From contig OX638351.1 of assembly GCA_951813565.1 (NCBI GenBank), positions 4,256,001 to 4,320,000 on the forward strand: DNA of 64,000 bases, written 5' to 3'. Every line of letters begins with the position of its first letter. The first letter of the stretch is position 1. Below, piece by piece: positions 39,001-42,000 of the stretch. This DNA comes from an uncultured Poribacteria bacterium (lineage in GTDB: Bacteria; Poribacteria; WGA-4E; WGA-3G). A program made the position numbers.

Positions 39001-42000
39001 TGACCCATACACCAAAAAACGGATGACACCACACGACAACTTTTTCTATCCGAATTTTCTTGGTAAAGACCAAATCTTTGTCAATGTTTTGGATTGGTAT
39101 AAAACCTTTCCAAAAGTATGGGGTATTTTGGGATGGAATATCTACTCTTACCATAGTCATTTTATTATTACACCGCCACGACCCGAATCTTTACGCGGTA
39201 AAACGTCACCACTCGGTTGGCATCAAGATAGTGGTCGTGTTAACATTGAGATAGAGAGTTCGCCTCGCCCACGTCTATCAATCAAAGTTGTCTATTGGCT
39301 TTCAGATTGCTCAGAGTCGGGACGCGGAAATTTTTATGTTATTCCAGGAAGCCATCTGTGGGATACATTTGAACGACCACAAGACGGTTCGGTCCCTGAA
39401 GGTGCTACTGCCGTTTGTTGTAAACCGGGTGACGCTGTCTTTTTTGATAGACGTATATGGCATGCGCGTAGTCAAAATGATTCGAACATCACACGGAAAG
39501 GGCTTTTTTACGGATACGGATACCGATGGTTACGCAGTAAAGACGATATGACGATCCCTTCAGGCTTATTTGAACAAAACGATCCGATCCGACAACAACT
39601 TCTTGGAGGCGGCACCAATGCCAATGGACATTTTTCTCCAAAGGATGTGGATGTGCCTTTGAAGGTCTGGCTTGAAGAGAAAGGTGTTATCTCAATATAA
39701 CACCTTGACATTATATCAAGTCTGTGGTATGCTTTAATCGCATCGTGGGCGCAAGGGGGCTACCACTCCCTGCCTACGGTGTTTCCACCTCTTGTAGGAG
39801 GGGTTTTAAACCCCGATAAACGCTTGGAGTTCGTAGTCGTGCAATTCATGGCACCTCTTACATTTCTTGTAGGAGCGCTTTGTAAGCGCGATGCATAGTA
39901 GCCAGCGCGCTCCGCGTGCTGGCCGTCGCGCCTTTTGTGGAAGCACTTTAGTAAGAAGCGCGCGATATATTGTTGCTGAAAACGGTTCACACATCAGTAT
40001 AAATTCGTTTTCAATAATACAGAGTGATAAAGTTTGTAGGTTGGGTTGGGTAGAGTTTGCGAAACCCATAAATCAACGCTATGAATGCCTTTATGGCATT
40101 CAGCCAAATCAACGCAGCATGCGCGTATGGCATGCTGCGGGCGTCAATTTAAGGATTTATTTCAGGTTTCACACATTTTAACCCAAACAACACCGGAACC
40201 CAATTGTAGGGGCGGGTCTCCGGTGAATGCCAAAAGGCATTCATACCCGGTGAATGACTAAAGACGAATGCGCTTGGTAGAATACGCTTTTGGTATTCTA
40301 CATGATTCGCCATGGTTCATACCGTTGATTTCTTGATTTGGTGCCCGCCAGTTGTTTGAATACATCAGCAATGGCGGGGCACAGAGACCCCACCAAATGC
40401 CAAAAAGCGCATTTGGCGTTGATTTGGCCCTACAAGGTGTGCCAGGATTTATCCCCTAAATTGACACCTATGGGGGTAGAGTTTGCGAAACCCAACCTAC
40501 TTATAACTAATGTAAGAGGCGCAATGAATTGCGCGACTACAAACGCTGATATTCTTAAAATCCGCGAAATCTGTGTAATCCGTATCATCTGTGATTCAGA
40601 CAACAAAATCCAACACAAAGAGGTTGACGGCACACGGAGTGTGCCTACTACTTTTAATCGCACATCTAAATCGGTTATTTATAAACTACCGTATTAAAAC
40701 CAATTATTGAGGTATAAAAATGTTTCAAAACCTATCGATTCAATCTATTGGGGTTGCACTGTTAATAGCAGCGCTTATGATTCCATTAGCTTTAGCGGAG
40801 AATGAAGTGGAAAAACCGAAAGAACTTAAAGTGGGCATGATAGCCCCAGATTTTACGTTGAAAGATGAAACCGGGACCGAACGTAGTCTCAGTGAATTCT
40901 TAGGAAAGAAAAGCGTTGTCCTCGCCTTTTATCCGAAAGACTTTACCGGTGGCTGAACAGCCGAACTCCAGTCGCTCCGGGATAAATTGAGCGACATAAA
41001 AGAAACCGAAACTGTCTTGTTCGGTGTCAGTGTAGACAACGTTGAGTCGCATAAAAAATTTAAAGAACAAGAAAAGTTCGGATTTTCATTGTTGGCGGAT
41101 ACTGAATTTGAGGTAAGCAAGCAGTACAGCGGGGTTATGGAAAGGTTTAACGCTTCAAAACGGACGACTTTCATTATTGATAAGGCAGGATATATCCGTG
41201 CAATTGATAAAAAAGTCAAAGTGCAGACGCATGGTGAAGATGTTGTAAAACTGCTTAAGAAAGCACTGCCAAAAATAGAAGTTGGGCAGCCTGCTCCCGA
41301 TTTTATCGCCAGGGATGGCGCAGGAAAAACACACCAACTCAGCAAGTTACAGGACAAAAAGAACGTGGTTTTAGCGTTTTATCCGCGTGATTTTGGGCGT
41401 GGCTGAACGGCTGAAGTTTGCTCGCTCCGTGATGAGTCGAGTAGTTTTGCTGAACAGGATGTCCAGGTCTTTGGGATTACTATCAATGATGCTGAGTCAC
41501 ATCAGAAATTTTCGAAAGAAAATGAACTGAATTTTCCACTGCTGATGGATACAGAAAAGAATCTTGCCTTACTCTTTGGTGCTGCTGCAGAAAAATCCGA
41601 CAAACGTTTCAAGCGCTTGACGGTAATCATTGACAAAGCAGGAAAAATCGTGAAAATTGACAAAGAGGTCAATCCAAGCACACACGGGTCAGATTTAGTG
41701 GATTTCTTCAAAACCGTTGATGCGTCAAAAGAATAATTGATGACACGTAAGACTTTCTCGGCATTTCCTGCTTGGGTTGCTTTGGGAACTTCTGTAATTT
41801 TTAGTCCGTTTATTGTACCGATTGTAACGGCTATATTTGTTGTCCAAAAACATGCGACTACAAATCAAGAAGTGATGCTTTGGCTTGCAATTGTGGCAAC
41901 ATTTGTTACGGTGCTACCGATATTGGCAATAGTTTTGCTATTTCGGTTTTCGAAGGTGAGTAATTTACATCTCCGTGCCAAAGAAGAACGACTAATACCG

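Follow-up and report, generated by a model that had tools for sequence, protein, structure and literature searches.

A tandem peroxiredoxin gene with two in-frame UGA codons, apparently both read as selenocysteine, in sponge-associated Poribacteria

A gene of the sponge symbiont Candidatus Poribacteria bacterium very probably encodes an exported peroxiredoxin (Prx) in which two domains of the BCP/PrxQ type are joined in one chain, selenocysteine (Sec) is placed at residues 79 and 229 under the direction of SECIS hairpins, and both sites act on peroxide. It lies in the window, the whole stretch of 64,000 nucleotides that was analysed. A preliminary description had merged three gene calls into one gene of 338 codons with two in-frame TGA codons, and the unbroken read-through translation bears this out. 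The features discussed below, numbered along the window, are as follows.

40709..40712, + strand: Shine-Dalgarno-like GAGG, 7 nt 5' of the ATG (sequence inspection)
40720..41736, + strand: single CDS of 338 codons plus TAA stop (41734-41736), with two in-frame TGA (translation with TGA read through)
40720..40797, + strand: putative Sec-type signal peptide, residues 1-26, A-L-A before Glu27 (by eye and hydropathy script)
40825..41265, + strand: Prx domain 1, residues 36-182, BCP/PrxQ type (Pfam AhpC-TSA, 123.0 bits; alignment to 3drn)
40954..40956, + strand: UGA-1, codon 79, peroxidatic residue of domain 1 (translation; same column in orthologs)
40971..40995, + strand: candidate SECIS-1 hairpin, starting 17 nt after the U of UGA-1 (folding; comparative pairing)
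41275..41733, + strand: Prx domain 2, residues 186-338, BCP/PrxQ type (Pfam AhpC-TSA, 114.8 bits)
41404..41406, + strand: UGA-2, codon 229, active-site residue of domain 2 (translation; same column in orthologs)
41419..41421, + strand: Cys234 (TGC), sole Cys of the protein, at U229+5, the position of the BCP resolving Cys (translation)
41419..41443, + strand: candidate SECIS-2 hairpin, starting 15 nt after the U of UGA-2 (folding; comparative pairing)
41740..42351, + strand: gene of a 203-aa multi-pass membrane protein, 3 nt after the stop (Pfam PAP2, E = 0.011)

One reading frame and its conserved UGA codons

Gene calling with table 11 splits the 338-codon frame into ORFs of 78, 139 and 63 aa; stopping at UGA-1 would yield a 78-residue peptide, which we counted against the two-Sec reading. 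Read through, the protein matches Pfam AhpC-TSA (PF00578, cut-off 26 bits) in two stretches with 232.7 bits in all, its halves scoring 123.0 and 114.8; the 150 and 168 bits previously reported for the domains were not reproduced. Nor were the 122-127 bits given for the NCBIfam thiol peroxidase/PrxQ models, since PRK09437 (thiol peroxidase/BCP) yields 105.3 and 89.4 bits for the halves and 187 for the whole. PRK09437 and PrxQ are nonetheless the top NCBIfam models for the domains, and the top solved chains are BCPs. The BCP equivalog NF006960, with a cut-off of 140 bits, is reached by neither domain alone (105.3 and 89.4) and is passed only by the two summed (187 bits). Domain 2 is 45% identical to domain 1, and in solved BCPs the column of UGA-1 is occupied by the peroxidatic Cys. 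Together, the profiles and the aligned TGAs uphold the earlier proposal of one gene with two tandem BCP/PrxQ-type domains and Sec at both peroxidatic positions.

The two TGA codons are a constant feature of the gene among relatives. Among 60 further genomes of the family, 57 gave one full-length match with exactly two TGA, in agreement with the conservation claimed earlier from a smaller sample; of the remaining three, one holds a match interrupted by a run of N (G042), and two (G022 and G028) gave no ortholog at the sensitivity used. The positions of the codons in relatives, which the preliminary description had taken from counts, were inspected here: both fall in the same columns, at the peroxidatic position, in 29 of 30 extracted loci and then also in the thirtieth (L023), and in all 80 named Poribacteria loci. 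Across the phylum, 131 of 151 genomes searched (the genome of the window included) carry a full-length two-TGA match, and each of the four families of one Poribacteria order has the tandem; none was recovered from 11 genomes belonging to other Poribacteria families, most of which have selA. Orthologs across the four families are 50-90% identical, with residues conserved on both sides of the TGAs.

That the TGAs might be real stops, delimiting three small genes or marking a pseudogene with two nonsense mutations, is what the three calls of standard gene callers would suggest. Against this, both codons lie exactly at the catalytic Cys position and two Pfam domains run across them; they occupy the same columns in every ortholog inspected, over four families and 50-90% identity with both flanks conserved; and the fragments would each lack half of a fold. 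The comparative data thus contradict this explanation, which we regard as hardly credible.

Close full-length database proteins (P0002-P0018, 50-78% identity) were considered as possible Cys forms and rejected, as they show W at the TGA sites: gene callers had used TGA as Trp, and these copies are the same TGA form. The search for a close Cys form returned only a distant Cys-Cys tandem, P0030, which is discussed below. Two polyA RNA libraries from one study contribute one short contig each that matches the window without a difference: X1 (40865-41015) extends over UGA-1, and X2 covers 41084-41237. They are not counted as evidence of transcription, since libraries of this kind can contain DNA and the two matches are only about 150 nt in length.

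Selenocysteine machinery and RNA-level constraint behind both UGAs

The genome encodes the components needed for Sec insertion, as stated earlier: profile searches recovered selB (344 bits), selA (607 bits) and selD (372 bits, its own gene containing one TGA), all above curated cut-offs, and a tRNA-Sec of 78 bits, also above its cut-off, adjoins selB. Since selA occurs throughout the phylum, in 144 of 151 Poribacteria genomes and also in families from which no tandem was recovered, co-occurrence of the tandem with the machinery is uninformative. TGA is not reassigned in this genome, because nine neighbouring genes in the window lack in-frame TGA, ruvB within the window ends in TGA, and several orthologs of the tandem Prx gene themselves terminate in TGA.

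These same observations bear on a reading of UGA as Trp, Gly or Cys through a changed code or near-cognate read-through, for which the W printed at both sites in public gene calls of relatives might be cited. Those residues arose where gene-calling programs resorted to code 4 for short contigs; the neighbours without in-frame TGA and the genes ending in it speak for the standard code, an enzyme with Trp as its peroxidatic residue would be dead, and a complete Sec machinery accompanies conserved hairpins behind both UGAs. We consider a different residue very improbable, and both TGAs are apparently Sec codons.

Bacterial Sec insertion requires a hairpin directly behind each UGA, within the coding sequence, so that a two-Sec chain faces two RNA and two protein constraints at once. 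The stem of candidate SECIS-1 has 6-7 pairs, (G)UCGCUC/GAGCGA(C), closing an 11-nt loop, CGGGAUAAAUU; in 59 distinct sequences 95.6% of cells are paired, as against 19-56% when the partner is slid, and at the closing pair 18:42, 13 have G:C and 26 have C:G. Candidate SECIS-2 has the stem UGCUC(G)CUC / GAG(U)CGAGUA, with a one-base bulge, and a 6-nt loop, CGUGAU; here 96.8% of cells are paired in 79 distinct sequences (26-51% with the partner slid), and pair 18:38 changes from C:G to U:A in 2. Both apical loops contain G, as CGGGAU... and CG(U/G)GAU. Overall, pairing across sequences is 93-97% with some covariation, true covariation being confined to few positions because most stem pairs are invariant.

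Codon choice is narrow over the same segments. Over SECIS-1 (codons 85-92) the synonymous-codon entropy falls to 0.29 bits and over SECIS-2 (codons 233-240) to 0.33 bits, against a gene mean of 1.08; the two lowest values of the whole gene coincide with the two hairpins, about 6-13 codons after the TGAs. When the 60 nt downstream of each UGA were folded as single sequences, hairpins formed, but their stability did not significantly exceed that of shuffled sequences (z = -1.59 and -0.66), and for that reason the SECIS case rests on comparative data. Rfam at gathering thresholds gave zero matches in the whole window. The hairpins behind both UGAs are under RNA-level constraint.

Two unequal active sites, probable export and a proposed reaction scheme

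The sequences FYPKDFTGG-U-TAE and FYPRDFGRG-U-TAEVC read in the translation exactly as first quoted. The accompanying statement that each domain has a PxxxTxxC motif holds for domain 1, where the motif is P72-xxx-T76-xx-U79, and fails for domain 2, where P222-xxx-G226-xx-U229 carries Gly in place of Thr (P-RDF-G-RG-U), as do 68 of 81 orthologs. Domain 1 has its catalytic Arg at position 148 and is without a resolving Cys; domain 2 has Cys234 and a catalytic Arg299. Measured against the pattern PxxxT/SxxC(U) with a catalytic Arg, domain 1 conforms and domain 2 does not. In an alignment of 46 sequences (A1), T76, U79 and R148 are invariant and P72 nearly so, and P222, U229 and R299 are invariant. 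The motif Thr of domain 1 is present in 81/81 orthologs and its Pro in 79/81, and the 13 orthologs (of 81) with Thr in domain 2 all come from the other three families. Cys at the +5 position occurs in 80/81 orthologs for domain 2 and in 27/81 for domain 1, and the spacing U229-x4-C234 matches the C-x4-C of the solved chain 2ywn. Loss of the Thr was counted against the peroxidase competence of domain 2.

This asymmetry invites the reading of a genuine two-Sec protein with divided work, domain 1 being the only peroxidatic site and domain 2 a resolving or relay module, or a thiol-disulfide oxidoreductase. Besides the contrast in Thr (Gly in 68/81 for domain 2, Thr in 81/81 for domain 1) and in the +5 Cys (80/81 vs 27/81), it draws on the grouping of the Gly variant in one clade (support 0.998), on a weak match of domain 2 to ResA, a thiol-disulfide oxidoreductase (47.2 bits), and on the pTM of 0.83 in an AF2 model, which suggests a fixed arrangement of the two domains. 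Yet no aligned sequence has lost the motif Pro, the Sec or Arg299 from domain 2, and the asymmetry is not ancestral, because the other three families (13/81) have Thr in domain 2. On balance we find divided work unlikely, though it is the strongest competitor to a chain with two peroxide-reactive sites.

A more specific form of it would be an asymmetric selenium redox relay in the periplasm. Domain 1 would be a 1-Sec peroxidase whose selenenic acid is resolved by the Thr-less domain 2, the U229-x4-C234 pair of which would have given up peroxide activation and would hand oxidising equivalents to a DsbD-fed partner. We hold this joint proposal to be doubtful. If true, Sec at both sites would guard the enzyme against irreversible over-oxidation in a setting that lacks a repair system, and Sec could make an otherwise universal Prx Thr dispensable.

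The claim that the protein is secreted stands in part: a hydrophobic N-terminal stretch with a small-x-small site is present, and only export to the periplasm can be drawn from it. A near-N-terminal 12-aa window with mean Kyte-Doolittle hydropathy of at least 1.9 is found in 78/81 orthologs, and a small-x-small motif before an acidic or polar residue, at about position 24-26, in 75/81. The AF2 model (mean pLDDT 89.4, pTM 0.83) places a helix at 2-26 followed by a low-confidence linker at 22-32, and each of its domains superimposes on solved BCP/AhpE chains with TM 0.85-0.91, normalised to the target. The first 10 residues of the signal peptide in the window contain no Lys or Arg, as is likewise the case in 21/81 orthologs. 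This n-region without positive charge, together with the putative status of the signal peptide itself, could point to an uncleaved N-terminal membrane anchor or to no export at all, with the enzyme at the inner membrane or in the cytoplasm; ortholog G061 and single-domain relatives of one genus (g8) also seem to start without a hydrophobic N-terminus. Set against such a location are a hydrophobic core of about 15-18 residues that is conserved though its sequence varies, the A-x-A, A-S-G or I-S-A that stands after this core and before an acidic residue, and the low-confidence linker predicted behind the hydrophobic stretch. An anchored or unexported enzyme is rather improbable in our estimate, and the protein is probably exported to the periplasm, to judge from these sequence features.

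Under the preferred reading of two peroxide-reactive Sec sites in the periplasm, SelB and Sec-tRNA(Sec) would recode both UGAs, guided by the hairpins 15-17 nt downstream inside the CDS, and the signal peptide would direct the pre-protein to the periplasm, where the mature protein would carry Sec79 and Sec229. Each selenolate would attack a peroxide (H2O2 or an organic hydroperoxide) and become a selenenic acid. In domain 2, Cys234 could resolve this by forming a selenenylsulfide within the domain, the route known from atypical 2-Cys BCPs; domain 1, being without a resolving Cys in the genus of the window, is proposed to be of the 1-Sec kind, with either an external thiol or domain 2 as its resolving partner. 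The reducing equivalents may come from a periplasmic thioredoxin-like protein fed by a transporter of the DsbD/CcdA type; the genome encodes a DsbD_TM protein (184.5 bits). No redox partner was found among the neighbouring genes. The multi-pass membrane protein encoded directly downstream matches Pfam PAP2 with 15.9 bits, below cut-off, and had no match in an NCBIfam search; a PAP2-like membrane-protein gene follows directly in 67/80 loci, and is a possible operon partner.

Known systems, a shared origin and significance

The chemistry assumed here is known. PrxU of Eubacterium acidaminophilum, a Sec-peroxiredoxin like the present one, was reportedly studied experimentally by Sohling and colleagues in 2001 and is said to be thioredoxin-dependent. 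It belongs to another Prx subfamily and, unlike the tandem, has a single domain and no signal peptide; its model NF040737 (peroxi_PrxU, cut-off 270) gives 111.2 bits for our whole protein and 63.6 and 47.1 for the halves, all far below that cut-off. The best sequence and fold matches of each domain are instead to BCP/PrxQ proteins (PRK09437/NF006960), the structures matched being Sulfolobus Bcp1 (3drn), 2ywn/4g2e, M. tuberculosis BcpB (5epf) and AhpE (1xvw). Domain 2 shares with the 2-Cys BCPs the spacing of their C-x4-C, as U229-x4-C234. BCP/PrxQ proteins use Cys and have one domain, whereas the tandem apparently uses Sec in two domains, each of which scores below the equivalog cut-off, and classical BCP/PrxQ cases are cytoplasmic.

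A counterpart in architecture is the metagenomic protein P0030 (375 aa), in which a signal peptide is likewise followed by two BCP domains. It differs in having Cys at both sites, with FYPADMT.GC and C-x4-C in each domain, and is 32% identical to the tandem. In a domain tree its two domains are sisters (support 0.997), so that it represents an independent duplication; as a Cys-Cys tandem with Cys in the same column, it makes the usual Sec/Cys pairing available. In the same tree, domain-1 sequences of the Poribacteria form one clade (0.889) and domain-2 sequences another (0.972), the two together excluding the Cys BCPs (support 0.992), and the Gly-for-Thr variant of domain 2 is a single clade within this set (support 0.998). 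These groupings indicate that a Sec-bearing domain and its SECIS were duplicated jointly in a single ancient event, in the ancestor of one Poribacteria order.

The preliminary description held that this architecture is not listed for prokaryotic selenoproteins, and the portions of two surveys that we consulted agree. Table 1 of a 2026 review (PMC13188914) lists Prx (PF00578, TxxU) with one Sec and includes other double selenoproteins, the tandem Prx not being among them, and the GOS survey (PMC2398784), in the part consulted, describes Prx fusions but no Prx-Prx fusion. With the Sec Prx of these surveys (in the GOS survey, Table 2), as they are described there, the tandem has in common the AhpC/TSA fold, a peroxidatic Sec, PxxxTxxU in domain 1 and a marine setting. 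It departs from their one-Sec form in its two domains, two UGA/SECIS pairs and predicted signal peptide, and from their TxxU in the Gly that domain 2 of the window's family has for Thr. More than one Sec per polypeptide is also found in entries of the same table: the double selenoproteins MbdU, MduS, the HUGP/GUXX-star fusion, arsenite methyltransferase fusions and UxxU Prx-like proteins. These, like the tandem, therefore entail more than one recoding event per mRNA. By the table's descriptions the listed double selenoproteins have other folds or motifs, and none is a duplicated Prx with two peroxidatic Sec. In the literature searched on Poribacteria, bacterial selenoproteins and peroxiredoxins, we found no description of a tandem two-Sec Prx; the doubled form is absent there.

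The domain duplication copied catalytic Sec and SECIS together, and four families of Poribacteria that live with sponges have retained the two copies, which offers a natural system for double recoding in one bacterial mRNA. The Gly that replaces the catalytic Thr in one of the two domains amounts to a natural experiment on the Prx active site. Because public data split the gene in three or print Trp at its Sec codons, antioxidant inventories of these symbionts miss the tandem Prx. The protein points to a defence against peroxide that relies on selenium and operates outside the cytoplasm, in a symbiont living inside an animal host.

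One gene encoding two peroxiredoxin domains

When TGA is read through, translation of the window yields an unbroken frame of 338 codons at 40720-41736 (+), with GAGG 7 nt upstream of its ATG, a terminal TAA stop, and two in-frame TGA codons, termed here UGA-1 and UGA-2:

40954-40956, + strand: UGA-1, codon 79
41404-41406, + strand: UGA-2, codon 229

Since table 11 splits this frame into ORFs of 78, 139 and 63 residues, it had been annotated as three gene calls. The preliminary description of one gene with two tandem domains is borne out by the continuity of the frame and by two stretches of the read-through protein that match Pfam AhpC-TSA (232.7 bits), although the 150 and 168 bits cited there for the individual domains could not be reproduced: separate halves gave 123.0 bits (domain 1, residues ~36-182) and 114.8 bits (domain 2, residues ~186-338). 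The top NCBIfam models were the BCP-type thiol peroxidase PRK09437 and PrxQ. The former scored 187 bits on the whole protein, and 105.3 and 89.4 bits on the halves, each of which alone falls short of the equivalog cut-off of 140 bits. The two domains are 45% identical.

An AlphaFold2 model built from the alignment (mean pLDDT 89.4, pTM 0.83) starts with a helix (residues 2-26) and a linker of low confidence (22-32), which lead into two domains of thioredoxin fold, each matched by Foldseek to BCP, Bcp1, BcpB and AhpE chains with TM 0.85-0.91 normalised to the target. At most about 0.42 of the model is covered by any one solved chain, and the tandem arrangement therefore lacks a precedent in the PDB.

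The N-terminus resembles that of proteins cleaved by signal peptidase I: in 78 of 81 orthologs a 12-residue window of strong hydrophobicity occurs close to the N-terminus, and in 75 of 81 a small-x-small motif (ALA, ASG, VSG, ISA and others) is followed, around position 24-26, by a residue that is acidic or polar, despite poor conservation of the sequence itself. The n-region of the window's protein is uncharged. A membrane electron transporter of the DsbD/CcdA type (184.5 bits) is encoded in the same genome, G000, so that the periplasm can in principle receive reducing power. One genus g7 ortholog (L134, G061:C38) has an apparent start, MGEVKAL..., that lacks a hydrophobic N-terminus and has a TGA just upstream; it may represent a non-exported form or a misjudged start.

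Retention of both UGA codons and their associated hairpins

The genes for Sec incorporation in G000 all exceed curated cut-offs, including selA (607 bits), selB (344 bits) with an adjoining tRNA-Sec (78 bits), and selD (372 bits). The last, located outside the window at G000:C1:4610940-4611866 (-), has one in-frame TGA, from which its product is predicted to be a Sec-containing selenophosphate synthetase. TGA is not reassigned in this genome. In-frame TGA is absent from nine genes neighbouring the tandem, ruvB ends in TGA, and several tandem orthologs use TGA as their terminal stop. Among these, L022, L026, L027, L035, L037 and L038 have two consecutive TGA codons at the gene end, which lack a hairpin though the two internal TGAs of the same gene are read through.

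Exactly two TGA codons within one full-length match were found in 57 of the 60 other genomes of the window's family; the ortholog in G042 is interrupted by a run of N, and G022 and G028 yielded no ortholog at the sensitivity used. The reported persistence of both codons in relatives held on inspection of the alignment, where they occupy the same columns, at the peroxidatic positions, in 29 of 30 extracted loci, in the 30th as well (L023), and in all 80 of 80 named loci. Across Poribacteria, 137 of 151 genomes (G000 included) contained matches at E <= 1e-40, distributed among four families of one order as follows:

Genomes with matches to the tandem gene, by family
f1: 96 of 99
f2: 10 of 10
f3: 26 of 26
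f4: 4 of 4

No match was obtained at this threshold in 11 genomes from five other Poribacteria families. A full-length two-TGA match was present in 131 of the 137; for two of these a third TGA is listed (G061, upstream of the start, and G127). The four genomes of genus g8, and G085, have solely single-domain relatives with one TGA. Because selA was detected in 144 of 151 genomes, some of them from families that lack the tandem, presence of the tandem marks one order and does not simply follow Sec use. Related database records derive from Candidatus Poribacteria, mostly metagenome-assembled genomes, and the apparently full-length proteins P0002-P0018 show W at both TGA sites, the mark of gene callers trying TGA=Trp on short contigs. 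Overall, the tandem peroxiredoxin is a real and strongly conserved gene.

Behind UGA-1 lies a hairpin, SECIS-1, with stem (G)UCGCUC/GAGCGA(C) and the 11-nt loop CGGGAUAAAUU; SECIS-2, behind UGA-2, has stem UGCUC(G)CUC/GAG(U)CGAGUA and a 6-nt loop, CGUGAU. Single-sequence folds are not significantly more stable than shuffles (z = -1.59 and -0.66, respectively), and neither hairpin has a match in Rfam. Comparative evidence nevertheless argues strongly for both as candidate SECIS elements. The mean synonymous-codon entropy, computed from 81 distinct coding sequences, is 1.08 bits; when windows of 8 codons are compared along the gene, the two lowest values, at codons 85-92 (0.29 bits) and 233-240 (0.33 bits), sit exactly on SECIS-1 and SECIS-2. 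Pairing is maintained at 96.8% for SECIS-2 (79 distinct sequences; 26-51% with a slid partner) and at 95.6% for SECIS-1 in the window's family (59 sequences; 19-56% with a slid partner); in other families SECIS-1 has the architecture of SECIS-2, with 92.9% pairing (20 sequences). The majority of stem pairs are invariant, while the closing pair of SECIS-1 covaries (G:C in 13, C:G in 26), as does pair 18:38 of SECIS-2 (C:G to U:A in 2). Both hairpins overlie the same encoded peptide, S-L-R-D, which fits a SECIS that would have been duplicated along with its domain.

Active sites and ancestry of the two domains

An alignment of 46 sequences, 32-91% identical to the query, reveals invariant T76, U79 and R148 in domain 1, where P72 is nearly invariant, and invariant P222, U229 and R299 in domain 2. 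The U79 column is the peroxidatic position of solved BCPs, and 2ywn has its resolving Cys in the column five residues further on (+5). Cys occupies +5 in domain 2 of 80/81 orthologs (C234, the sole Cys of the window's protein), and in domain 1 of only 27/81, all within CSLRD, the context characteristic of genus g5, the remainder having Q, R, N, K or S. A PxxxTxxC-type motif had been ascribed to each domain; this stands for domain 1, whereas in domain 2 Gly replaces the motif Thr in 68/81 orthologs, a variant forming a single clade (0.998). Thr is retained in 13/81, from other families, and in more distant f4 and g7 genes.

A FastTree phylogeny (LG+gamma), rooted on one Cys BCP, was built from the separated domains of 17 tandems out of the 46 in the alignment, 7 single-domain or paralog pieces, 7 Cys BCPs and both domains of P0030, a distant metagenomic protein. 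Every domain-1 sequence fell within a single clade (0.889) and every domain-2 sequence within a second (0.972), and the two clades jointly excluded Cys BCPs (0.992). Since they nest within the domain-1 clade, the copies with a single domain in G085, G084 and G126 are secondary; the single-domain genes of g8 have no signal peptide and form the sister group of the whole domain-2 clade (0.982). P0030, in which a signal peptide precedes two BCP domains with Cys at both sites, goes back to a duplication of its own (0.997). Decay of one domain is seen in some paralogs: L135 of G046 (G046:C108) has Ser in place of Sec in domain 1, and in P0016 and P0022 domain 2 is the decayed one. In L135, P0016, P0019 and P0022, one domain lacks Sec and the motif, with Ser or Gly at the site, and the other has TGA.

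Genomic setting and relation to known selenoproteins

Neighbours of the tandem include a WD40 protein, a GFO/IDH/MocA oxidoreductase, a PhyH dioxygenase, YebC and RuvCAB, with no obvious redox partner among the neighbouring genes of the window. The 655-aa WD40-repeat protein (35673-37640, -; PF00400 285 bits, 7 stretches) is unusually eukaryote-like for a bacterium. A gene for a 203-aa multi-pass membrane protein (41740-42351, +) begins 3 nt past the tandem stop and lies directly 3' of it in 67 of 80 loci, the other 13 being from more distant families; it shows weak PAP2-like motifs (Pfam PAP2 E = 0.011, sub-threshold) and may be an operon partner. Beside it, in 58 of 80 loci, is conserved a 271-aa protein (42402-43217, -) with no family match and a C-terminal CxxC...CxxC zinc-ribbon-like tail.

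Short contigs in two RNA libraries match parts of the tandem gene identically, one spanning UGA-1, and are too weak to count as evidence of transcription. Run X3 holds one contig of low depth (2.9x), with 5 mismatches over 52 nt, in which 40959, immediately past UGA-1, is connected to 41401, immediately ahead of UGA-2, so that 441 nt are left out without a change of frame. This contig probably stems either from a different organism's single-domain relative or from a jump of the assembly across the two similar segments. The hairpin GGCACACGGAGTGTGCC(TAC) at 40629-40648, which precedes the start codon by about 75 nt, is a dispersed REP-like repeat, with 47 genomic copies at <= 2 mismatches versus 0 for a reversed control; in a common variant, GGCACGCGGAGCGTGCC, both arms are altered together. 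Metagenome contigs stack on this hairpin at a depth > 2000.

Elsewhere in the genome (G000:C1:5151533-5151982), and at many sites in related genomes, weakly matching thioredoxin-fold frames of ~200-430 aa contain one in-frame TGA, some of them paired on one contig. The lineage looks rich in putative thioredoxin-fold selenoproteins, which could include the reductant of the tandem.

Peroxiredoxins that have TxxU and a single Sec have long been known as a selenoprotein family, abundant in marine settings (PMC2398784, PMC13188914), and double selenoproteins with other folds are described in PMC13188914. A two-Sec tandem peroxiredoxin is absent from the tables of both papers, as far as these were accessible, and no description emerged from full-text literature searches. 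The chemistry of the tandem peroxiredoxin is already known; what appears new is the union of two predicted Sec/SECIS units in one putatively exported chain, whose second site is Thr-less in the window's family.
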